A stretch of 62,155 nt of DNA, filler included, from Dugesia japonica (taxonomy: Eukaryota), in assembly GCA_001938525.1 (NCBI GenBank). It is 6 parts of 6 records of this genome, joined end to end, with 100 filler letters (N's around TTAATTAATTAA, not from the genome) between each part and the next. Parts side by side here need not be neighbours in the genome. Positions count along the whole stretch, not along the records: positions 19,592 to 32,599 come from MQRL01601515.1; 5 more parts are not named here. One strand, written 5' to 3'. Made by a program: the position numbers and the translations under genes. Position 1 is the stretch's first letter, and the number at the start of each line of letters is the position of its first letter. The notes beneath the pieces were generated by a model that had not been told where the DNA came from, did no database searches, and saw only the letters and a list, made by a program, of their open reading frames with translations. Shown here one piece after another: positions 3-39,774 of this stretch.

Positions 3-1995
3 GCTAGATTAGCAAATAGAAAATCATTTTATACAAACCTCAAGCCAGAATATGGAAAGGATATTAATGTCAAAACTTATGAAAGTTCAAAAGGAAAAGG
101 CTTAGTTCCGAGAAATGAATATAATAGAGGTAATAATTTTAGTCAAAATAATAGAGACACAAATTACATACGTTTCAATCAACAAATCCATGACCACGGA
201 TATGGAAATAACAAATATGAACACGAAAATATGAACAGGAAAAGTCAATTCCTGACGAAGACAAGGTCGAAATATCGAATTGTTATCCAATATCAATAAT
301 TAAAACCTANNNNNNNNNNNNNNNNNNNNNNNNNNNNNNNNNNNNNNNNNNNNNNNNNNNNNNNNNNNNNNNNNNNNNNNNNNNNNNNNNNNNNNNNNNN
401 NNNNNNNNNNNNNNNNNNNNNNNNNNNNNNNNNNNNNNNNNNNNNNNNNNNNNNNNNNNNNNNNNNNNGTTTAGATAAATTTTGAATGTTGCATTTTACG
501 TATGATGAATCAATTTACCAGAAGATGACAAAATCCTTAAATAAATGTGTAGTTTTATTATTGTAATTTTTGTATTTTATTGTGTGAATTTTTAAATACA
601 TATTTTTCTACCAGAACTTGGTTTTTAATGAATTCTCTTAATTTAAGAAATAATAACTCCAACAGTGTCTATTGGCAAAGACAAAAAGATTCCTAAAAGA
701 CTTTACAATTTATCAGATTCCGAAAGAAAAATTTAAAAAGGCACAAGAATAAGTAGCTTAGAAATCTGGAAAGAAAAAACCGAATTCATCAGAAATTTTT
801 ATTCCAACAAATTTAAGGTGTCTCGTGTAAACGAATTGATTGATCAAATCGAAAAAGAAGATAACATTCCTTTAGAACATAATAAAAGGGTTAGAGATTA
901 ATATTAAAGTATGCTAAAATATTTAGTAAATGCGACACAAATACTGGTCATTGTAAAAAACTAAAGCATTACATTGCCACTAAAGAAGAAGCGCCGATCG
1001 CTGTTCCATCTGGATGAATACCGATAGAACTTGAGGATAAAGTTGATAATTTAGTTGCAGATTTATTGAAAAAAGAGATAATCAGGAAATGTGAAAGCCT
1101 ATGGAATTCACTTTTAGTGTGTATCACTAAAACCAATGGGAACATAAGATTATGTGTCGATTATCGGCACTTAAACTTAGTCACAGTCAGACCAATATAT
1201 CAAATTCCAAAAACTTCTCAGCTTTTTGATGCACTGATTAGAGCAAAGATATTTAGCGTTTTAGACTTATCTAATGGATATTATAATGTCGAAGTAAATG
1301 AAGCGGATAAACAAAAAACAGCATTCTCCACTAGAAGAGGTCAGTATGAATTTAATAGAATGCCATTTGGCCTGAGTTCAGCCCCAGCAACATTTCAACG
1401 ACTTATGCATCCGATATTGCAAAATAAATATTGGGAACAACGTCTTATTTATCTGGACAATGTATTGATATTTGGAAACTTGTATGAAAAAAATCTATCT
1501 CGATTGGAAGTAGTTTTAGTTAGAATAGAAGTATCAGGAGTTAAATTAAAACCTGAAAAATGTAATCTTTTGCTAAAGGAAGTTTCATATCTGGGATATA
1601 GAATTACGGCAGAAGGTATAAAAACAGATTCAATAAAAATAGAAAAAGTTTGAAATTGGTCAGAACCAGGGTGTTACTCAGATCTAAATTCCTTTATAGC
1701 TTTCTGTAACTATTATAGAAAACTTATAAAAGATTTTGCGTATGTCGTATTACCTTTAGAAACTATATTGAAACAAGTCAAACAAAACATAAATGGGAAA
1801 TATAGCAAAAAACAAATAATTTGGGATGCTGAAGGAAATGAAGCATTTAAAAAGATTTAGGAACTTCTAACAACAGCCACAGTTCTAGCTTGTGTTCTGA
1901 AAGAAGATATGTTCATATTAGACACAGATGCAAATCACTGTCATATTGGATGAATCTTAAGCCAAGTTCAAAATGGAGATGAAAAAGCTATCGCA
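3..1995 (+). mobile_element. Degenerate Ty3/gypsy LTR retrotransposon (probable gag tail, RT, start of RNase H), 3'-truncated
   Basis: ORF 1066-1653 has RLCVDYRHLN, LDLSNGYY, KTAFST, RMPFGLSSAPATFQ and YLDN (YxDD mutated). In frame past stops is FILDTDANHCHIG*ILSQ (RNase H). The stop-free frame 3-300 is taken as gag by position only. Confidence 0.9.
246..282 (+). ncRNA. Minimal type I hammerhead ribozyme
   Basis: Stem I CAATTC(246-251)/GAATTG(277-282); core CTGACGA 252-258; extra A259; stem II GAC-aag-GTC; GAAA 269-272; palindromic ATAT in place of stem III; UC cleavage site after 276. Confidence 0.8.
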
Positions 1996-1996
1996 A

Positions 1997-3900
1997 TTAA
2001 ACAATTATATTAGAATAGAACCATAAACATATTTATCTACAATTTAATCGATTTTAATTGACTGAATTAATTATTAATTTATAATTATTTCCTTATATCC
2101 CTCTTCTTAAGAAATTTTCTGTTTTTTCACATTTCTTTCTAATCGCTGTCCATTTTCTCCTTGTACCACATACTTTCTTACAAGAATTCTCTCAATTATT
2201 CGATAAAAACCTTCAAATCTGTTTTGGCTTTTATTTCTTGTTTCTATCTTGATGAGGACATAATTTCCTACTTTGAATTCTCTATTAGTAGTCACTTCTG
2301 AAATTCTTTGATTATTTCTCTCTAAAGCGTCTTACCAGTATCACTTTTCTCTGCTAATTTTCTTTACAAAATAAAATCTCAGCCGGCTCTTTCCAGTCGT
2401 CTTTCGTTATCTTGCGTTTATTGTAAATTCTATTTCCGGTAAAAGATCTGCCCAATCTGTTGTCTTTCTCTTTTTAAGTGTTGCATTAATTATATCGCAA
2501 ATTGTCCTAACTGTCTTTTAATTTGCCCGTTTGCATTGTGATGCATGCATAAATAATAAACAGTCAACAACTGTTTTAGTGTGATGCAATATTTTTTCAT
2601 GACCCGTCATTAAGTGTAATCCATATGCAACAACTCTTTCTCTGCCTTTTTTATCTTTCTGTGACAATACTGCTCAAATTATATCAAAACTTTGTTTATT
2701 GAATTCTTTGTTTATGTCTGGAAAACACAATATTGGTGCAGTCATTAGAGGTTTTTTCAAATCCTCAAAGGTATTGTTTATTTTATCTGCCCATTATAAT
2801 TTTTTGTTGCTTGAACCGCAGCAAAACTGTTCTAAAATCCTTGATTTTCTTGCATAGTTTTCTATAAACCTTCTGTAGTAATTAAAATTTTCTAAGAAGC
2901 CTCGCAACTTCTTCATTCAATTAGGTCTGCCAAAGGTTTTTATTACTTCTATTTTAAACTGATCAGTTCTAACACCATCTCTACTGATTATGTGTCCAAG
3001 AAGTTTTATTTCGCTTTGTAGAAACTGACACTTTTCGGGATTTATTCTTAAACCAGCCTTCAATTACTTCATAGTGTTTATCTTTATAGTTAGTAAATAT
3101 CATGATATCATCAAGATATACCATGGGTCCATTAATTTTGGCTACCACTTTTATCATCATCTCTTGAAATGTTTTCGATGCCGCTGCGATTTTGAAAGGC
3201 ATTTTATTAAAACAATATTGTCCATACTTTGTTGAAAACGCTATTTTTTCTAGAGATTCTTCTTTGAGTTCTACCTGATAATACGCATTTCCAAAATCTA
3301 TTCAACTGAAATATTTTGTTCCATCTAACTTGTCCAGCATTTCATTAGACATCAGAAAGGCTTGTCTTTTCGTTACTGCATTCATTTGCCTGAAATCCAA
3401 ACATATCCTTATGTTTTTCTTTTCCTTTTTCCAAACGCAAATCAGTGAAGTATTCCATGGCGAGTTGTGTTTTCGAATAATATTATTCTCAAACAAGTTA
3501 TGGATAGCTTCTTCAATTTTAGCATCCAAGTTCATTAGTTGACTATATGGTTTAATGTTAATTGGTTCACCACTTGCAGTTATTTTGTGTTTTATCAGAT
3601 GTGTGCGTCCTACATTTCACTTATCTGCCATGAAAACATCCTTTTTATTTCCATTTATTTTAAATAACCGTTTATCGTCTTTAAACTTCAGAATACTTAA
3701 AGCTCTAGCAAATCGTTCTCACTTATTAATTTGTCTCCCAAGTTTTGCTTCAATATTACAAATGTAATTTTTGACTTCTACATTAGCTTACTTTCAATAC
3801 AAGCTGGTATCTAAAAGCCTTCTGAATATCAATTCATCCAATCAAATCTGGCGTCACTCTTTCTGCAACTAAAAAGTTACCTCATTGTAAACATCAATTA
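1997..3900 (-). mobile_element. Second degenerate Ty3/gypsy element (RT, integrase C-terminus, PPT, partial 3' LTR)
   Basis: RICLDFRQMN (3302-3535), MPFKIAAASKTFQ and VYLDDIMI (2981-3202), integrase tail ...ERNVKK (2107-2295). Minus-strand PPT AAGAAGAGGGA precedes an LTR starting at 2097. Confidence 0.88.
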
Positions 3901-4770
3901 TCACTCCAGTTTTAACTTTCCCAACAATTTCAAGAAAAATATAAAGCACCAGCTTACTGGTTGAAAATCAGTTGAAGAACACGGGTGCCATGAGAAAATA
4001 TAAAAACGATTAAAACGCAAATAGAGACTGAAAGAAATATAGCTTCAGAATAAAGGATTTATTAGCAATAACCTGAATAAAGATTTCACAACAAGCAGAA
4101 AGAGATAGTAAAGAAACGTGGAACGAGTATTATTGAAACATCAGCAAGCGACGATTTGGAAATAAGGTGCAAAAGTAAACAGGGATGATGAGAAAAGTGG
4201 AAGATAGTATGGTACTAATGAGTAAGGGAAACATATTGCTGTGGATTGGATACAAACCATTTGCTATATTTAATCATTCGAATTCGATATATTATTACAA
4301 GGAAAAGCCAAGGAATTGTGGCAAGCAGTCAACACAAGCTAAGACTTGAATTTAACAAATTATTTCTACAATTTATTTTTTTCGTTTATTGTGAAAGTTA
4401 AACTTTGTGTAATTATTCACTTTTTAAAATTTTTTAACTATTGATCTGTGAATTAAAAAATTAAATATTTTCAAAATTACGAAACTAAATTAAGGCGTAG
4501 ATCATAAAAGCTTCAAAAATATGTTTCTTTTTAAAATTTTTATTAAAGTAACAAAAGATTTTTTTTAAAAAACGGTTTTATTTTTTCACAAATTTTCGAT
4601 TTTATCTTCTTCAGTTGTAATTGATTTATTCATTTTGAAGTTTAATATCAATTTTTCTAATTTTAAATCTTTTTATCATGGTTTTGATTGAATAATATTA
4701 TTAAAAATTATATTAATATCTAGTTTAAATTTTTTGATTAAATTTCATATTGTTTTTTTCTATTGAGTGC

Positions 4771-5200
4771 TGTTATACATATAATAGGTGTTAGTTGGGT
4801 TTTGAAAACTCAAAGAATCATTAACATCAGAATTCAAATTCATTACAACAATTTATTAAAATAAAAATTATATTCAAAAATAATTGTTAATCAAACAAAT
4901 TAAAATCCCGTATTTTAAATAATGATCCTTTTTCTAAAATTGAAAATTGAAAAATTTATTTATTTAGAATTAATTTAATTTAATTCACTTAAAAACATTT
5001 CATTTATCTACTTAATTTTCATTTAAAATTTACGACAAAATTTCCGCTCACTTTTAAAATTTTATTTATTTAAAAGTTAAACTTTATTATTCATTAATTT
5101 TAATTTATCCTTAATAATTTAAATCTCTCTTTTAAATAAAAGATTTTAAAAATAAGATCACCAATCACACAAAAATTTCAACTTGCTTTTCAAAACCGCT
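4771..5200. repeat. Dispersed LTR-like repeat; inverted copy at about 36540-36960
   Basis: ATCACCAATCACACAAAAATTTCAACTTGCTTTTCAAAAC near 5157 matches the reverse complement of about 36545-36585, and similarity continues along the block. Confidence 0.6.
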
Positions 5201-6400
5201 CACAGTAGGAATCTATTACTTTCCATTTTAAAATATTGTAGTCAGCATGAATATTATGATCGTGTATGAAATGTTTATATACTTCACTTTCATTCTGTTT
5301 GATATGTTCTATGATTCTGGTTCTGATTGTTCTAAAGGTTTTACCTATGTATGATTTGTACAAGTAATTTCATAAGTTACATTTTTTATTACATATGTAC
5401 CGGTTATTACATATGCATTTTGGCCCACATGAGTTATTCTTCGGTCTTTTTAGTAGAATTCCTAAGGGTGTTTGTGTTTTTGATATTATCCTAAGTGAAT
5501 ATGTGATCTTTGACTTGTACATAATATTCTGCATCAATTGACTACATTTTTCATTGATATATGGTAATTATTTACTGTATTTGATTTTTTTCTATTTTTC
5601 TTTTTTCTATTATCATTCTATAGTACATTTTGTGTTAGATATTTTGATATGACATTTTCTGGATAACCATTTCGGTAAAATTTATTTCTTAGTAGCTCAA
5701 TTGATACTGATACCATGTTTTTGTTAGATGATAATCGTTTTACTCTAATTCTTTCTTCTTTGATAAACATTATTTTTTGTCTTGTAGGGATATTGCTGCT
5801 CCATGGTAATATCAATCAGCTGTGAAATGGTTTTATGTATAGTTGGCTAGTTAACATTTGATTAAGTTCTTTTCTTATAAGTGTGTCAAGAAAATGTATT
5901 TTTTAATCTATTGCTTCTTCTAATGTGAATTGGGTGTTATTGTTGATATTTTTGGCTATATTAAGAATGTTTTCTGAGATAGTATTGGTAATGAAGAAGA
6001 TGTCATCTATGTATCTTAGCCAAAGTTTGATTTTACTATTTGCTTTATGGATGATTTCTTTTTTAATGTGATCCATGCCAATAATGGCTAATACTGGGGA
6101 TAAGTAATTGCCCATAGCTAAACATTTTTTTTGTTTATATAACTTATTGTTATATATAATACTGTCTGATCTGAGACGAAGAGTTATTAATGACTTAAAC
6201 TCCTTTTTTGTAATTCCTAAAATTTCTGAATAGATTCTATGTTCATCGTAAAATTTGTTCATAATATCTATAACATTATCTGGTTAATTGATTGGTACAG
6301 AACCATATAGATTCGTAACGTTTAATGTAAGTAATAAATTCTGATTAAGCACTGGAAGAGTATAAATAAGTTTCGTGTTATCGATAAGCAATTAAGTTAC
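5200..6400 (-). mobile_element. Penelope-like retroelement relic (RT plus GIY-YIG endonuclease)
   Basis: Minus-strand motifs LNVTNLYGSVP, YKQKKCLAMGNYLSPVLA, WLRYIDDIFFI, NGYP, then NVTYEITC...SYIGKTFRTIRTRIIEH (GIY-YIG). Frameshifted. Confidence 0.9.
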
Positions 6401-9420: not shown

Positions 9421-9659
9421 NNNNNNNNNNNNNNNNNNNNNNNNNNNNNNNNNNNNNNNNNNNNTTAATTAATTAANNNNNNNNNNNNNNNNNNNNNNNN
9501 NNNNNNNNNNNNNNNNNNNNTGTCGAAAATTTGAACTTTTTTACAAATAAATTTTGTTTTGATCGAAGCCTTATCTTATTTTAATGAAATCTATTTTGAT
9601 ATTAACTTATATAATTATGTAATGAAATACTGCTCAATTTATAATATAAAATTTCTTGA

Positions 9660-9723
<64 letters not shown>
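9340..9723. repeat. (ATT)n microsatellites bordering gaps (also about 18220, 18960-19125, 19455, 42470, 49080, 50875-51140, 51870, 54543)
   Basis: Visible trinucleotide runs. They produce the poly-I/L/Y/N ORFs in the track. Confidence 0.95.
9421..9520. other. Artificial 100-bp contig spacer N44-TTAATTAATTAA-N44
   Basis: Exactly 44 N, a 12-mer with stops in all six frames, then 44 N. Confidence 0.97.
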
Positions 9724-11284
9724 NNNNNNNNNNNNNNNNNNNNNNNNNNNNNNNNNNNNNNNNNNNNNNNNNNNNNNNNTGTTAAATTGTTTGGTCATTC
9801 TGTTGCATTTCACCAAGGCAGTTATTAATTTTTTATGGTATAAAATTACAGAATATATTGATGGCAAATATCATTAGAGATCATTAATAACTTATAAACT
9901 TTTATGTATAAACTTTTTTACATAATTTATTTTAAAATCTAAAAGTAACTTATTCACAAAGTTGGAATTTTACATCAAATTTTGGCAATTTCTTTTAGTT
10001 ACTTATTTTTACTACGTTGTTGTATCAGTTACAAAACTGGTTATATTCATTAATATAAATCATACAATGCATTTTAACTCAAATAAAACTAAACTAAGTA
10101 TATATTGACAATAATTTTCCGAGAAACATATATTGTATTTTATTTATCAAAATTAATTTCAAGTATAATTTTAAAATTAAAATCTAGTTTTCACAATAAA
10201 TGTATTCAGAAAATTGGTTTGAAATTATAATTCAGAAAAATGAAAATTTTCACAAAATTTTTATCATAGAAAAGTAAATTAATTTCTTTAATTGTTGTAA
10301 ATCTTTTAATAAAACTTCAACCATTAATTAAATTATCATTTTCACAAAACGCTCGCCCATTAAAACCAAAATTTCGTCATAATTATGTACGGTAAAATTT
10401 CCATAAGTATACCGAATTTATTCTTCAAGTTTTTTCTCCAGATAATCGAATTGACCAGCTCTTTGCGAAAAGGTTTTATCTGTAATTTTTTTGATAAAAA
10501 TTCGTTTAAATAGACCGAAATCCGCTTTGATTCAAAGTAGAAACCGTTTAAATTAGGCATAAACTAGGTGAGAGAATGCGACCTCTTAAATGAATATTAT
10601 TCAATTTATTATTGTAAAAAACAACGTTAATAAGCTAATTAACAAATTAAAAATTAGATTAATTGTATTTATATTACAGTGGAAACGACTAAATTAATTA
10701 TTAAAAAATAATTTAGTAATACAACAACCAAATATTATTTATATATTTCACTTACATTTGTTTAATCCCAGGTATTTTCTTAATTCTAGTTTTCACTAAA
10801 ATATTCTCTTAATAACATTTATCTAATTTAGTGTATCATATACGCAGTACCGGTGAGAAGATCTTTTTCACTTTCTTTGACTACGCTCCCCATTATTTTT
10901 TGAAATTTTGCTACTTGTTATCAACATATCATAATCAAAGGTTTTCAGTATATATAATAATAGCAGTTAGTTTTAACAATAATACATTATTTATTATTTA
11001 CAACTGCAAAGTTAATTTCAAAGAGTTTCTCTGTTTAAGTTTTAAATGTTTCGTTTTATGACTAATGTAAATAATGTAATAATCAAATTGATGGCATGGT
11101 GCCCACTTACGTGGGCCCTGCCTATTCGTTTATGATCAATTTTCTTAGCGTAATTAATGAAAACATCGCTAAATTAATAAATTTTTCTTTCGTATTTTTA
11201 AAGTTTAATCGATATTTTAATAAATAAGTTAAAAAATTATTGTACAAAAATCAATATATTTAATATTATTTTTATTAATTTTAG

Positions 11285-11584
11285 ATATCTCAGGAAAATA
11301 TTCAGCGCTTTAGACCACCCGCTGTTTGTAGTGGACATGATCATTTTGCAAACGTTCTATTAGATGAAGAATTCAGTATAAATGTCACCACTTTATGGTC
11401 ATTAATTTTCACTGATCATGCATTTTTCCGAGCTTTGTGTGCAATTCGATTTATTACTGATATCACTCAGAGTAATTGGTCCGATGATATTGATATTGGC
11501 AAAGAGCAGTGTCGAACTATTTATTATACGGTTAATTTAAAAAATAGAATTGGGCCAAAAAAATCACCTACAGTTGAAAAACAA
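11285..11584 (+). CDS. GRAMD1: Exon of a GRAMD1/Aster-like sterol transfer protein (N-terminal half of VASt domain)
   Basis: ttttag|...|gtaaat, 300 nt, phase 0-0. Translates ISQENIQRFRPPAVCSGHDHFANVLLDEEFSINVTTLWSLIFTDHAFFRALCAIRFITDITQSNW...RTIYYTVNLKNRIGPKKSPTVEKQ, matching the recalled VASt pattern (VDKLYDLLFTNSPF...W...R.I.YT..L.NP.APK...ETQ). Confidence 0.88.
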
Positions 11585-12199
11585 GTAAATGAAAATTATA
11601 CTGATTATGCTGTTTTTTATTTTAAAACGAGAGAATTTCTCTGAAAAATTAATATATTAATATTTGGTACTTTAAATTGTTACTTTCGCAACTATTTTCA
11701 AATTTTTTTCTATGTTTTATTAAAATTGATTGAAATAAAAGTTTTACAATTTTTATCATTTTAATAATAGCGTCAACAATCCAATGACGACGACGACGAA
11801 TACAGAATAAAATGATAAATTTTGATTTATAATTACTATAGGTATTTATATAAAAATGATTGAGTTATTCCTCTGCTTCAGGTGACAATATGTTTAGACT
11901 TAATTCTGCTCTTTTTGTGATTTATTTTAACGGAATATTTCCCATTTCTCATTTATTATTGATATATGAATTGTGTTTTCATAACTCATAAAATTAATAG
12001 AACTTTATATTTGTTCAGATAAATTGACTGTGTTAACAACTAACCAGAAATTTTTATATGAGAATTAGTTCGAATTGAGTACAAGAATAAATTGTTATAA
12101 AATATTTTCAAAAATCTCTATTTATAAATTTACAATTACAATTAATACGAGAATAACTTAACCAGTGATCATGTTTGAGATTTCAGTAAATTAAAAGCT

Positions 12200-28003: not shown

Positions 28004-28929
28004 ATACCCAACAATTGACAACAACACTTGCAAGTACTGCTTTAATAATAAACTGTGTGTGCATGTTTATGTGTGAATGTGATGACTGATTCTGATGATG
28101 TGTGCGGTTACTGTAAACATAGTCATGCACGTAGATTAGTGAATGCTTTCAAATAGTCATGAACGCTGAGACGCGTAAATAAAATAAAATTGAATATTAT
28201 AATATTCACTTGATATGATGAACTATCTAATTCATGACATTTTAAGTCTAATATAATAAAACAACGAATTGATTTAATACATTAATAAAATTTATCGTTT
28301 TAAAATACAATTTTCAATGTTGTTTTTATTTGAAAACTTTAGTTTGTAAAAGTAAAACTAGAAAAAATTCATCAAGAATAATATTAATGCAATGTTTATA
28401 TTTTTACTTTCAAAAAGAAAATTCCTTACATTATTGAGTAGCGGTTTAAACAATATCTAAATTTTTTAATTAAAAATTTCACAATAAATTTGGGAGTACA
28501 TAAATATATTTCAAATCATTATAAAACAATAGTTATTAAAACAAAATCACCTATATATATTTAATTGATATGTAACCTAAATAAAACAATTGGTTTCAAA
28601 TTTTGAAATGAATAATTGAGAGAATTGTACGTAATTATTAAGAAAAGTTCGGTAATAAATAAATTTATAAATATTTATATAGTTGATGTTCATTGAAATT
28701 TTGATATTATAAATTAGATTTTACGTTTTGTTTTTCTACACTATCGTAATTGTTTAGATAGTTTTATGAAAATTTTAATAATATATTGCTGTATTTAAAA
28801 AGTAAAAGGACTTTTTAAATACACTCAAACCTGTTTTGTGCGTTATTTTATGCGGTCCATAAAATATTATGTATTTTGATGGACTTCATATAAAATCGCA
28901 GAAAAACAGATATGAGTGTGAAATAATCA

Positions 28930-29150
28930 TGCATATTTCTTTTGCCTTCTTCTCTAAGTAAATCCCCTCTCGTACGAAGACACGTTTATCAACGTTGAAT
29001 CCAATCTTCGAAACATTTTTTATATTCAATTCTGTAGAATTTTCATCAGCGCATCTTTCGATTTTTGTTTTCTTGATTTCATTGACTCAAATCGGTTTTT
29101 TTCAAAGTAGTTTCTTTATTTGTTGAATGTTTGGTGAGAAACTCATGAAT
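28930..29150 (-). mobile_element. Mariner C-terminal relic
   Basis: CFEDWIQR...RGD-like tail typical of mariner transposases. Confidence 0.55.
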
Positions 29151-29978
29151 GATGATTACAAAAAATTAATGATTTTGGAGTGCGTTTTGCTGCTAAACGT
29201 GTAAAATAAAGATATAATAAAAAATATAATTAAATATATAAAATAAATAAAAATATTAATGTTGACATACTTAGAGGGATTATTACCATAGTAAATCAAC
29301 AATGCATGAGTTTAGTGGCTGAACTTAAATAATACAATTATCCCAAAAAATATATTTTGTTATAAGATTTGATCCTATATTCCTTAATATATTTATAATA
29401 AATAAAACAATATTGATATAAATACACTAAATAGTACTCCTTATTTTACTGTTAAAAATAAATTTACTTTTAAAATTAATGTATTATCAAACGTAAAACA
29501 ATTATTACAAGTTGAATTTAAAAACCAATGTATTATTAAACGTAAAACAATTGCAAAATATTGAGCCTCAGTTGTGAATCTAGAGGAGATCCAAAATGTT
29601 GTACAGCTATGAAATGGTAGTTTTCTGAATTTAACAACAGTATTTTTACTAAAAATTGACTGAAAATGGGAACAATTAACCGCCAATTTTTATAATAAAA
29701 TCATTAAATTTATATTTGAAAAAACAGAAAAATTTTAAATCAATTTCCGATCAATTATTGAAATTTTCATGCAGTAATAATCATTGGGAATTATTTGCGA
29801 TTGTCACTGTTTACAGATTAATTAAAGTTTATACATAGAAATAAATAAAATAAATTTTACAAGTTTGTAGAATAAAAATAATAAAATAAAACTTACAAAT
29901 TTGCAGAGTAAAATAATTGTCAGAATTCAATAATCATAATATTCGAAATGAAATTAAATGCTCAGAAATAAATAATAT

Positions 29979-31392
29979 TCAGTCAAAATAGTCAAATTGA
30001 TAATAATAGTCAAAATAATCATATTGAATTGTTGAATGATTAAGCTTCTTGGGTATTGATCGAATATCGAATATTGGTTGATTTGAGTATCTGGTTCTTG
30101 TATATGTTTTTGTTATGGTTTGTATTTTCCCCAACAAATGTTCCCCTTCGAAAGAAGATGCATCTGCATCTTGAGTAAGAAATAGGGTAAAGAATGGACA
30201 TCCCATATCATGTAATCCGGAGGGTATTGTATTCGAGCAAGGTTCGTTGAATATACAAGGGTTAAATTCTTCTTCAATATTTGGCAAGGTAGGATATTGG
30301 GACGTAGGTATTGAAAATATCTCAAGTGGTTATCTTTGTCTGGTGGGGTTGTAAATTTTTGGTTCCTTTCCTATTGATTTTTTACAATTATCTGCTATTC
30401 TTTTTAATTCTTGTTTTTCTCTTTTTTCTTCCTTTAGAATTTCCTCGTAATGTTTGAATAGGGGTGCGTATTTTGGTAAATCACCTAATAGTTTTTGAGT
30501 AATAATTTTAATAGTAGTGATCTTTTGGCCAACGTATAGGATTGCATGTCCTGCTTCTACAGTTTCTGATGTTATCGATTGGACTTCTGCAACGAATTCA
30601 TATGGTACTTTAAATATTGGTGATTGAAGTATACCCTTTTGTTGTTTACCGTCGATGAGATGATTATAATAACGGCCCGTTTGGTAATATAATCTATGGG
30701 GTAATATATCTTTGTGATGGAGCAAGTTAAACTGTGAGGCGGTTTTAGTCGTACGAAATTTTTTAACAAATTCAAAGCGATCTGGTATCTTGATTCTGGT
30801 GTTGAAACGTCTTAGTTCATTATTAAGATGAAGTTGCATGTATCTTTATCCTTTTTAGATTGATTCACTATTTTGACCGTGCACATATCAGTTTGTATTT
30901 GGCTGATAGATATGAGATCTCTCTGGATAGTCATTGTTTTTTCCGACCAGATCTCCAAATTCGAAGATATCCTCTTGATAATATAAAGGTAGGTGGTGTG
31001 CGGTTCTTGTAAAATTATTGAAGGAGACTTTGAGGGTTAGTAACATACTAAGTTGTTGTCCTACTTTTAATGGTGGCATTTTTATGAAGAAAACTCTCTT
31101 AGGGTGGAAATCATATATTCTACATGAACGGCAAACTGGACAAGGGACGAGATTTAGATTGAAAAGGAGGAAGGCCTTAAGTATACAATTAAAGCAAAAG
31201 AAATGGCCGAATTCTAGGATTCGAGGAATTTCAGGGTTGTCTAAACAATGTCATCTGATGTATAATACATAATATTTGTGACATCGTCCCAACCATAAAT
31301 TAGTGGATATTTTTGGACGAGTTTTTTACATATAAGATTATTTTACAATTGTTGTGTAAGTATATTTTCCTTGCAGCTAATTCAGGATCCAT
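29979..31392 (-). pseudogene. Intronless, disrupted RNF10/Mag2-like C3HC4 RING protein (about 470 aa when reconstructed)
   Basis: MDPELAARKIYLHNNCKIIL / PLIYGWDDVTNIMYYTSDD / CLDNPEIPRILEFGHFFCFNCILKAFLLFNLNLVPCPVCRS...KRVFFIKMPPLKVGQQLSMLL. Track ORFs 30888-31079, 30330-30839 and 29979-30287 share one frame, separated only by stops. Confidence 0.72.
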
Positions 31393-31466
31393 CTCTAAAA
31401 ATAAATAATGTAATTATCTGTACATATTAAATACTTATTTATACGTATACATATATATAAGAATAA

Positions 31467-32194
31467 TTATTTGGTTATGGATAGAGGTAGCTCTTGCCTA
31501 TCTTCTTCGAGGGCTATGCTGTCATACATTACGTTTGCGACTATGAACTTATATTTATTGTCTATTCTCTTTGTGCCAAATGTTACGTATGCCTCATCAT
31601 TAGTTAAATCTTTTACGGTGACTGTGGTATTTAAAGATTTTTCNCTCATAATGCCTGACATGTCTATTAGAAACTTTCCAATGTCTAATATTTTAATATT
31701 AGGGTCAAGTCCAAGTTCATCGTCACTGTCATCATTATCACTCGATTCATCGTCTGTGAGATACTGTATAGTCTCTTTACAGAATTGTACTTCATCAATT
31801 GTCAAATCTTCTAATGACTCCGTTCATGGTTCTTTTCTTTCGTGATTGGATTGAGCTTGAATCTTCACTGCTGTATCTATCCTCGTCTGAATCGGTATCA
31901 CTATCAATTTGTATTGGGCTTCCAGGTACACTTGTCATCTGCATATCATACTCATTATCTTTATTTTCTCTTCGTTTCTTAGGTGATGACGCATTATTGT
32001 CAATATCTGATTCTTCATCAAGGTCAACGCCGCTGTACTTTAATCTCTTAGTACTGTTATTCTGGTTTATATTAGGTTTTGCATGATTGTCTGTAGGAGA
32101 TTTAGTTTTGTTTATGGATTCATAGATTTCATTTTTATCCTTTCTCTGCAATGCTACGGGCCAGTAGTTAGCTGTAGGAGGTAATTCCTCTCAT
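31467..32194 (-). pseudogene. Intronless acidic/Ser-rich protein of about 240 aa with NLS-like PKKRR; two frameshifts; no recognised family
   Basis: Reconstructed M/EELPPTANYWPVALQRKDK...SPKKRR...DSDTDSDED...RKKRTM/TESLEDLTIDEVQFCKETIQYL...ELPLSITK*. Single-base shifts near 32190 and 31825 join the track ORFs. Confidence 0.6.
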
Positions 32195-32599
32195 AAATAA
32201 AAATATTAAAATACATCAAAATATATAACAAAAAATATAATAACAAATAATAACAAGAAATATAATAAAATGTATTACATATTCTATTCTATTTTTAATT
32301 TTTTATTAGATTTTATTTGTTTTATATAGTTTTATTATACATTTTATTATATTTGTATTAAATTTTTTATTATGCATTTTTAAAAAAATGAAATATATAG
32401 CAAAAAATATAATAATAAATAGTAGATGGATAGTGGCGGATGGCACCACGCACACTTTCAGCAGAACCCCCCCCCCGACGTAATCGGATTATTACATAAG
32501 TGGTTCCATTTTTTCTCTGTGTATCTAGTTGGCAAGATTATTTGCACACAAATTATGTCATCAGATTAATTTCATCGCCGGGAAAATTTACGTAATAGG

Positions 32600-38709: not shown

Positions 38710-39774
38710 TTATTTACAGTGAAATCTATGATAAATCTGGTAAAAGATTTCAATCGTTCTTTTTCTAAATACTTTTCCCGCGGCACAATAAAATATCCAA
38801 TTACTGCATGCATTTAAGTAGCAAATCGATCGAAACAAATAGTAATAAAATTTATGACTGGAATTTGAAATAACTTTTGCTTGAACTGTAAAATTAAGAA
38901 TCATAAAATATATAAGCAGCGGATATGTAGTAATGATATACCAAATATTCATTGATATTAATAAATATGTGACATGATTTGCTGCATCACGTTTAGAATT
39001 TCGTTTTTGAACATCATGAATATTTATTTCTCTTCGAATTTCAATATTTCCTAATGAAGGATGATGATTTCGCATATTAATATCTGTGCATAAACTATTT
39101 ATTGATAAAGTCTTAACTTTTATATTACTTTCAATTGGCTGTCGAATAGTCCAGCAAATTATTACTGTAGTAAAAGTCATTGCACCAAGCGGAATTACTC
39201 CCCACAAAATCATATCGCATAGTGATGTTACTTCAAAATAATCACTGGATGGTGGATCACAATCTCCTTCTCGTACTCGCCAGTAAACAATATAATAAAT
39301 ATGCGGAGATAATAGCAAAATAGTAACAATTGACCATATGATTAAGGTTCTTTTAAAAGGAAACAAATATCGTGCTCGAATTGGAATTATAGTAAAAACA
39401 CATCTTTGTACGGACATGAGAGCTTGCATATAAGCTGACCAATAAAAGAAGTAATTAGATAAAAAGGTATGCAGAGCACAAAATACATTGTTAACGTCTC
39501 TTAAGTCAAATTTAAAAAATACCTTACCAATCATCCACAACGTTTCAGTACAAATTATCATCATATCTCCAATGCATATACTCACTAACCACAATAACAT
39601 TGATTTGGGAAATAACTTCGATAAGTACAAAAATATTAAACAAAAAACTGTGCCCAGTAGTCCAATTATTGTTACAAATATCAAGTACCATCTTAAAAAG
39701 TAAAAACAAAGGTATGAAAAAGAAACACTGTCTGATTGACAAGATTTTGAAATTACAGAATTATTGAAATCCAT
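38710..39774 (-). CDS. Intronless rhodopsin-class GPCR, 354 aa, peptide-receptor-like orphan (FMRFamide/Srw-like group)
   Basis: Intact ORF with seven hydrophobic segments, TM2 GD, Cys atop TM3 and in ECL2, SVQRC at the DRY position, TM5 IPL, TM6 TTYP, TM7 LNACSNWIFYC...FR, and N-terminal NNS sequon. Confidence 0.93.
   Translation of the reverse strand: MDFNNSVISKSCQSDSVSFSYLCFYFLRWYLIFVTIIGLLGTVFCLIFLYLSKLFPKSMLLWLVSICIGDMMIICTETLWMIGKVFFKFDLRDVNNVFCALHTFLSNYFFYWSAYMQALMSVQRCVFTIIPIRARYLFPFKRTLIIWSIVTILLLSPHIYYIVYWRVREGDCDPPSSDYFEVTSLCDMILWGVIPLGAMTFTTVIICWTIRQPIESNIKVKTLSINSLCTDINMRNHHPSLGNIEIRREINIHDVQKRNSKRDAANHVTYLLISMNIWYIITTYPLLIYFMILNFTVQAKVISNSSHKFYYYLFRSICYLNACSNWIFYCAAGKVFRKRTIEIFYQIYHRFHCK

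Follow-up and report, generated by a model that had tools for sequence, protein, structure and literature searches.

A decayed two-gene block in Dugesia japonica carries a compact RNF10-like RING gene and is probably retroelement cargo

What kind of element left two compact genes, one of them resembling the ribosome-surveillance ligase RNF10/Mag2, at the end of a contig of the planarian Dugesia japonica? We addressed this question in a stretch of 62,155 nucleotides (nt) from assembly GCA_001938525.1, hereafter the window, which consists of contigs joined by N-linkers at 9421, 19492, 32600, 42369 and 51933. The two-gene block forms the end of the contig at 19592-32599 (MQRL01601515.1), and a first-pass annotation had taken it for a fossil piece of a large DNA element or virus. 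We found a broken two-gene layout with many diverged copies, kinship of its second gene to a compact protein family with the RNF10 fold, and an integrase beside one member of that family. The nearest intact relative of the RNF10-like gene lies immediately behind an integrase of the retrotransposon type, which makes retrotransposon cargo a likelier source than a DNA virus; the block is probably a dead copy of a many-copy accessory-gene block from what was likely a large retroelement of the Ty3/Gypsy type.

The block comprises two co-oriented coding remnants on the minus strand, the stop of gene 1 ending at 31467 and the ATG of gene 2 lying at 31392, with 74 nt between them. In the minus frames of 29979-32190 (2.2 kb) there are five open stretches of at least 110 amino acids, a number equalled by 0 of 1000 base shuffles. 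The layout originally described, two co-oriented intronless genes about 75 nt apart, is therefore sound, but 'intronless' holds for the coding part only, as AG sites precede both genes and gene 1 lacks a start ATG. The earlier contrast with spliced host genes of the region does not hold locally: the host-gene pieces found, a VASt exon (11285-11641) and a G-protein-coupled receptor (GPCR) gene (38713-39774), lie on other contigs. Gene 2 is divided as follows.

31392-29979, minus strand: gene 2 as a whole, compact RNF10/Mag2-like, from the ATG at 31392 to the final stop at 29981-29979.
31251-31392, minus strand: pre-RING part (MDPEL, YLHNNC, WDDV), which frame breaks divide between two reading frames.
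31044-31250, minus strand: C3HC4 RING and RNF10-type extension (KRVFF..VGQQLSM), assigned by Pfam and hhalign.
30264-31043, minus strand: middle and C-terminal RNF10-type core, with a helical hairpin, an LYYQ beta region (30692) and a long K/E/R helix (30431), assigned by the family profile.
30198-30263, minus strand: C-terminal N-x-C-x5-C-x8-H-D-x2-C motif, common only to the compact family.
29979-30197, minus strand: read-through tail to the stop at 29981-29979; its frame is unreliable, and other copies differ by insertions and deletions.

Relatives were sought with gene 2 read through, with X at the stops (P0001). A word-based protein search yielded none among 1696 candidates; a full HMMER scan of 1,835,955,588 representatives returned exactly two matches, P0002 (445 residues, E 1.8e-5, collinear with query residues 2-304) and P0003 (576 residues, matching in the RING region). 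P0002 belongs to an unnamed compact family of seven clusters (P0002 and P0006-P0011; 404-446 residues), the six further relatives having been found among 1908 candidates; its members are 44-51% identical to P0002 and all lie on short assembled contigs. Our comparison set consists of nine longer proteins (P0003 and P0012-P0019), none of them labelled as animal, which we take from their motifs to be canonical RNF10/Mag2 and call canonical-type here; no source gives them that name. The Atlas model of P0002 aligns with clusters named RNF10 at a template-modelling (TM) score of 0.59-0.61 over about 300 residues, and the compact-family profile matches the canonical-type profile at 99.8% over 283 columns. 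The compact-family profile also matches gene 2, over profile positions 54-406 (43.5 bits, E 6.6e-15), and gene 2 with the RING removed still scores 12.7-15.3 bits on it, which 0 of 500 shuffles reached. The Cys/His motif N-x-C-x5-C-x8-H-D-x2-C occurs with identical spacing in the window protein and in 7 of 7 compact representatives, and in 0 of 9 canonical-type proteins; across all six reading frames of the 62 kb window, a looser form of the pattern turns up a single time. An unrooted tree of 17 rows, none of them animal RNF10, groups the window protein with the compact family against the nine canonical-type proteins at 99/99.

Since gene 2 scores outside the RING on the compact profile and not on the canonical one, its kinship to RNF10 beyond the RING is real but runs through the compact family, so that this part of the first-pass annotation stands in an indirect form; the direct canonical score is weak. 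Gene 2 belongs to the compact RNF10-like family, and an RNF10-like mode of action is predicted for it. We do not class it as a member of RNF10 itself, because the RING is broken in this copy and the substrate is only predicted. The model of P0002, with a mean predicted local distance difference test (pLDDT) score of 70.7, is confident to about residue 370 and not in the Cys/His motif (pLDDT <50), which may bind metal or RNA. Fold searches with this model returned only RING-only or generic helical-hairpin rows, a result that does not show a new fold, and no RNF10 structure turned up in searches of the PDB. A pattern search of prokaryote genomes gave 64 matches, 0 of them confirmed.

How intact is the gene in the window? 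Ahead of the RING and into it, the coding sequence occupies three frames in turn, the third of which then holds in-frame stops at 30890, 30857, 30848 and 30332 before the final stop at 29981. No family-profile match was seen in the tail (29979-30197) beyond the Cys/His motif. The RING piece exceeds the Pfam zf-C3HC4 (PF00097) cut-off (22.6 bits against 21, E 9.7e-5), in agreement with the C3HC4 RING that had been proposed, but Cys or His occupies only 6 of the 8 zinc-ligand positions, the first falling in a frame break and the third not being Cys; all eight are invariant in 18 of 18 intact rows. Every RNF10-like motif that had been quoted is present (YLHNNC at 31362, WDDV at 31291, KRVFF at 31100, VGQQLSM at 31064 and the K/E/R coil near 30431), although the pre-RING motifs (aromatic-x-x-x-N and W-x-x-V), spread over two frames, are weak when taken alone, their scores against the canonical pre-RING profile being equalled in 2 of 300 and 23 of 300 shuffles. 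With hhalign, the RING and its extension match the compact family at 98.8%, and P0001 matches the canonical-type profile (A4) at 97.4% over 105 columns that include the RING. Direct support for the post-RING extension is modest, because its score on the canonical-type profile (1.6 bits) was equalled by 6 of 500 shuffles. A list of ATG-based open reading frames (ORFs) would miss the RING, as had been noticed, because the first Met of the RING piece lies behind the RING.

To ask whether the block has relatives elsewhere, contigs of three sequencing runs (X1, X5 and X8) and reads of one RNA run, 4 of the 24 listed, were aligned on 29250-32599. Diverged contigs are numerous in all three contig sets. 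X1 contributed 4227 aligned records, many of them on the terminal repeat, and its summed depth over 29250-32385 was 125-6259, against 6.5 and 17 for two records nearly identical to the window (0 and 2 differences); summed depth is not copy number, and we take from it no more than 'many'. At individual positions of gene 2 (e.g. 30163, 30965 and 31071) another letter is found in 16-38 distinct contigs, and in gene 1 in up to 12. These many diverged copies agree with the earlier view of a fossil mobile origin and not a single copy. The two genes are also linked in at least one other, deleted copy, as had been anticipated, because one contig each of X1, X5 and X8, the last under a second species label, joins 31022 to 31512.

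The deepest bins of the coding region are 30146-30257, which covers the Cys/His motif and is the highest, and 31042-31153, at the end of the RING and its extension. Diverged copies cease aligning at 31399-31408, near the start of gene 2, and other copies of gene 1, about 85% alike, have alignments ending at 32190-32191 (records 6, 12 and 13). Depth peaks at protein motifs together with alignment ends at gene starts are consistent with selection acting on the proteins as the family diversified. In this copy 7 of 27 coding differences are synonymous, compared with 27% expected by chance; the 27 come from 40 displayed differences (739 in total), 13 having been dropped as non-coding or near frame breaks, and the test is not a ratio of nonsynonymous to synonymous rates (dN/dS) among copies. 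As the synonymous share is about that expected by chance, this copy decays neutrally. A period of coding selection followed by decay had been proposed, and conservation at the motifs followed by neutral decay of this copy bears it out.

Genomic context comes from a locus of 6071 nt (L001), the 1 locus obtained from 51 pattern matches in one metagenome scan, which carries three co-oriented ORFs. ORF1 opens within an integrase; residues 7-184, reaching through a GPY-type motif, have Ty3 Gag-Pol as their best PDB match (E 1.4e-14). In frame behind the integrase, ORF1 continues with a hydrophobic, signal-like segment, an fn3-like stretch of one or two domains (E 0.077, below the cut-off) and a membrane-like segment; this fusion is placed at 700-1804 (plus strand). 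ORF2, directly behind the integrase ORF, is the RNF10-like gene, and an AG immediately precedes its ATG. ORF3 (3801-5876, plus strand; 691 residues) has an RNase T/DEDD exonuclease-like part at residues 170-345 (Atlas features 0.94), for which Pfam and PDB gave no sequence support; it is a possible second RNA- or ribosome-related cargo. By eye, the usual acidic catalytic motif of ORF3 looks degenerate.

Could the block instead be part of a large DNA element or virus, such as a Polinton, a Ginger1-like or Helitron-like element or another DNA virus, that captured RNF10? The first-pass annotation read it in this way, and we consider it unlikely. The only relative whose DNA context could be read lies behind an integrase of the Ty3/Gypsy type, and resemblance in the IMG/VR loci and BFVD is RING-only: profiles from outside the RING score in 1 of 34 loci, L001, with 3.5 bits (E 0.43) as the best of the 33 IMG/VR loci, and BFVD has no match at E<=0.001 and a TM score of at most 0.13. 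Scans of viral contigs with window pieces, P0002 and L001 ORF1 gave nothing, and the other viral-contig scans nothing or RING-only matches; L002 and L003-L034 were rejected as relatives because they match in the RING only. A DNA element would suit the window in that no retroelement gene lies beside the block, that a high-copy tandem repeat abuts it, and that the contig ends in this repeat, coverage stopping short of the sequence upstream; gene 1, moreover, has no counterpart in L001, and giant viruses have many RING genes. Gypsy-like integrases are also described in Ginger1, with a GPY/F motif and ubiquitin-pathway cargo (OTU, Ulp1), and in Polintons, in the sections of PMC2836005 that we cite here. 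The same sections, however, describe a typical Ginger1 as one transposase ORF with a protease tail (OTU or Ulp1) and terminal inverted repeats, whereas L001 has an fn3-like and membrane-type tail and two further ORFs. It had been noted that no transposase, polymerase or capsid is visible and that the contig ends. In 18 frames, which cover most of the contig outside the block, no Pfam family was found at E<=0.01, those of protein-primed DNA polymerase B (pPolB), capsid and HUH included, a weak test in decayed DNA.

Two other origins were weighed. Gene 2 could be a fast-evolving host paralogue, or a processed copy of flatworm RNF10, amplified with its neighbours, its likeness to the L001 family reflecting common descent or long-branch attraction. 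The tree, with its long window branch and without animal RNF10, would allow this, as would the W-x-x-V pre-RING motif, which the window shares with canonical proteins and the P0002 family lacks, and the neutral-like share of synonymous differences given above. We nevertheless judge it distinctly improbable, since C-x5-C-x8-H-D-x2-C with the same spacing is a feature of the compact family and of no canonical-type protein, the score outside the RING is with the compact family and not the canonical profile, and gene 2 exists in many diverged copies, has an unrelated gene as its neighbour at a distance of 74 nt and gave hardly any poly(A) RNA in the run used. We give very little weight to the idea that the block was a passenger in a non-autonomous repeat moved by another element's enzymes, its proteins having last been selected in an older autonomous element. 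The contig has no autonomous gene, some variants carry deletions (their joints skip 489 and 811 nt) and depth ranges about 50-fold along the block, all as a passenger would have it, but depth peaks on protein motifs and diverged alignments end at gene starts, which fits selection during diversification.

Cargo of a large Ty3/Gypsy-type element, the origin that we prefer, has its own evidence to answer. In the window contig no pol gene, long terminal repeat (LTR) or polypurine tract (PPT) is tied to the block, and the contig ends upstream at 32599. DNA context is known for 1 of the 7 compact-family clusters only, and in its 6071 nt, which start inside the integrase, no LTR, repeat, PPT or other terminal purine tract, reverse transcriptase (RT) or gag was seen. 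Gene order there differs, gene 1 being absent; nothing in the window matches ORF1 or ORF3 of that locus (best E 2.4), and GPY/F integrases are, as mentioned, shared with Ginger1 DNA transposons. A contig of 1949 nt aligns with gene 2 as far as 31400 and has no listed piece on gene 1, which speaks against strict linkage. Gene 2 is only about 20% identical to the compact family, its row in the tree is a very long branch (3.11) with no animal RNF10 available, and the model of the window protein is poor (pLDDT 49.2), though the order of its helices and strands resembles that of the P0002 model. Far from the RING (FYQ-type domain and long charged helix), the direct score of gene 2 on the canonical-type profile is -2.1 bits, with 88 of 500 shuffles as good. 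In the poly(A) RNA run, of which about a quarter was read, 316 reads aligned, 98% of them continuing into unlike sequence; depth was below 3 in every bin of 29922-32161, that is, over both genes, and there was no spliced read or listed splice joint.

If the block is indeed retroelement cargo, an ancestral element would have captured an intron-free copy of host RNF10, which would then have lost its low-complexity tail and gained the Cys/His motif. Each accessory gene would be expressed from a spliced sub-genomic RNA by way of the AG acceptor that precedes it. Since none of the eight RING ligands varies within the family, the intact protein is predicted to be an active ubiquitin ligase. It would dock on the 40S subunit and either tag it or displace host RNF10, so that quality control would favour the element's long mRNA; the copy in the window would have decayed neutrally after insertion. 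Given such an element, the chance that the intact ligase still acts at the 40S subunit or competes with host RNF10 seems to us real but somewhat short of even; it is suggested by the retention of both the RING and the non-RING core. A switch to a new substrate, for example a silencing or stress protein, would be nearly as likely.

The wider proposal, that large animal retroelements encode an RNF10-derived ligase that is kept across deeply diverged lineages (about 20% identity, same Cys/His motif) and rewires 40S quality control, we regard as doubtful. Were it true, a mobile element would be attacking or shielding ribosomes directly with a captured surveillance enzyme. Herpesviruses have been reported to remodel ribosome quality control by deubiquitinases; a retroelement ribosomal ligase would be the converse, and ribosome surveillance would become a front in the conflict between transposons and their hosts. 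The intact natural members, as stripped-down RNF10s of about 440 residues, would likely provide a minimal core for structural and substrate work.

How does the block compare with known systems? RNF10 in mammals and Mag2 in yeast are described as ubiquitinating the 40S proteins uS3 and uS5 on ribosomes that stall during scanning or shortly after the start codon, after which RIOK3 drives 40S decay (PMC13075771 and PMC12008924). The compact family, through which gene 2 is tied to RNF10, has the C3HC4 RING with the same extension, the helical hairpin, the FYQ-type beta region and the long charged helix. They differ in size, the compact family having about 440 residues against 494-782 in the canonical-type rows and clusters, in the missing low-complexity tail and in the added Cys/His motif; the window gene differs further in being an uninterrupted coding part that is present in many copies and broken, with a substrate that is only predicted.

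Large Gypsy elements with host-derived accessory genes are already known. The planarian elements Burro and GYPSM1 are giant Gypsy-like LTR retrotransposons with accessory ORFs, tandem repeats and common decayed fragments; their captured domains include ubiquitin-linked ones (MATH, Ubi/SUMO-like) and others tied to apoptosis and ribosome maturation (midasin-like), and Burro ORF1 has 4,873 residues (sections of PMC6431247). If the block is retroelement cargo, a large Gypsy element with accessory ORFs, tandem repeats and ubiquitin- or ribosome-tied cargo would be common to both cases. Burro/GYPSM1 is characterised by a giant polyprotein with env between gag and pol and by MATH, BIR and ankyrin cargo; the sections on which the comparison is made mention no RNF10-like gene, their only RING mention being an AIR1 label (PMC6431247). 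Expression of Burro is treated in PMC8532177. The Platyhelminthes GAG-ENV-POL errantiviruses are envelope-carrying flatworm Ty3/gypsy elements (PMC13524379), a likeness to the membrane-type domain fused behind the integrase of L001. Neither L001 nor the surroundings of the block showed env, gag or RT, and the main text of PMC13524379 does not contain 'RING', 'ubiquitin', 'accessory' or 'fibronectin'. In titles and abstract openings of the open-access literature we found no report of a transposon or virus that carries RNF10/Mag2; in the one transposon paper that names RNF10, a host transcript is driven by a Helitron-borne promoter (PMC4778049).

The remaining parts of the block and its surroundings are as follows.

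31467-32190, minus strand: gene 1, an acidic Ser-rich protein of about 240 residues; a frame break separates its two open pieces, 32190-31798 and 31823-31470.
31393-31466, minus strand: AT-rich spacer of 74 nt, ending in a T-rich tract and an AG two bases before the gene 2 ATG.
32386-32599, no strand: tandem-type repeat of very high copy at the contig end, upstream of gene 1; the coordinates are bin edges and not exact ends.
29250-29978, no strand: AT-rich, repeated 3' flank with short tandem duplications (36 nt and 49 nt), recognised by depth and duplications.

The two pieces of gene 1 have 131 and 118 residues, of which Asp and Glu make up 19% and 24%, and include the basic clusters PKKRR (31983) and RKKR (31842). 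There is no in-frame ATG at its start, which is preceded by an AG acceptor-like site. No Pfam match was found for gene 1 at E<=1, and the C-terminal piece had no PDB match and no viral-contig relative, with one PHROG at E 0.061. Gene 1 probably encoded a nuclear, acidic regulator belonging to the same element, a guess from its composition. The AG in the spacer is an acceptor-like site that may serve in splicing.

The terminal repeat has units of about 50-130 nt, and its summed depth in the last two X1 bins is 7.4e4 and 8.5e5; aligned contigs show joints that go back and loose ends that loop. Its high copy number is probably why the assembly stops at 32599. Pfam and Rfam gave no match to it, and a pattern scan of viral contigs returned 0 matches. 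It may or may not share an element with the block, of which it is only a candidate member. The repeat also occurs under the second species label, with some RNA reads. A ubiquitin-like gene upstream of the block, suggested by an RLRRGG string near 32480, was rejected: the DNA there is the tandem repeat, and the string had no Pfam or PDB support. On the other side, the 3' flank has a median summed depth of 310 in X1, close to that of gene 1 (311); the element may continue beyond 29250, as no boundary was found in the window. An Rfam scan of 25000-32599 gave no match.

Elsewhere on the same contig, at 25186-26100 (minus strand), lies the decayed end of a Gypsy integrase (rve E 0.098); a G-rich purine tract and TG come after it, as at a PPT-LTR junction, and the stretch resembles 2116-2543. 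We treat it as a separate insertion because it lies downstream of the block and ends in its own purine tract. A decayed coding-like stretch at 27100-27900 (minus strand) has a Cys-rich piece (CPICY) and no Pfam match, and may be an accessory remnant. The open piece at 21885-22151 (minus strand), with no Pfam match at E<=0.01, contains the string SDLNPLDFHIW, which is reminiscent of Tc1/mariner transposases. On other contigs of the window, a FLYWCH finger (E 2.5e-4) at 14711-16114 (plus strand) is followed by pieces that resemble a decayed Mutator-like transposase, and the GPCR gene at 38713-39774 (minus strand) is an intact single exon encoding a seven-helix receptor of 354 residues with a weak Srw match (E 0.0028). 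Among the viral loci, the giant-virus contig L002 carries three tandem paralogous small RING genes at 9719-11731 (plus strand), which outside the RING are unrelated to RNF10.

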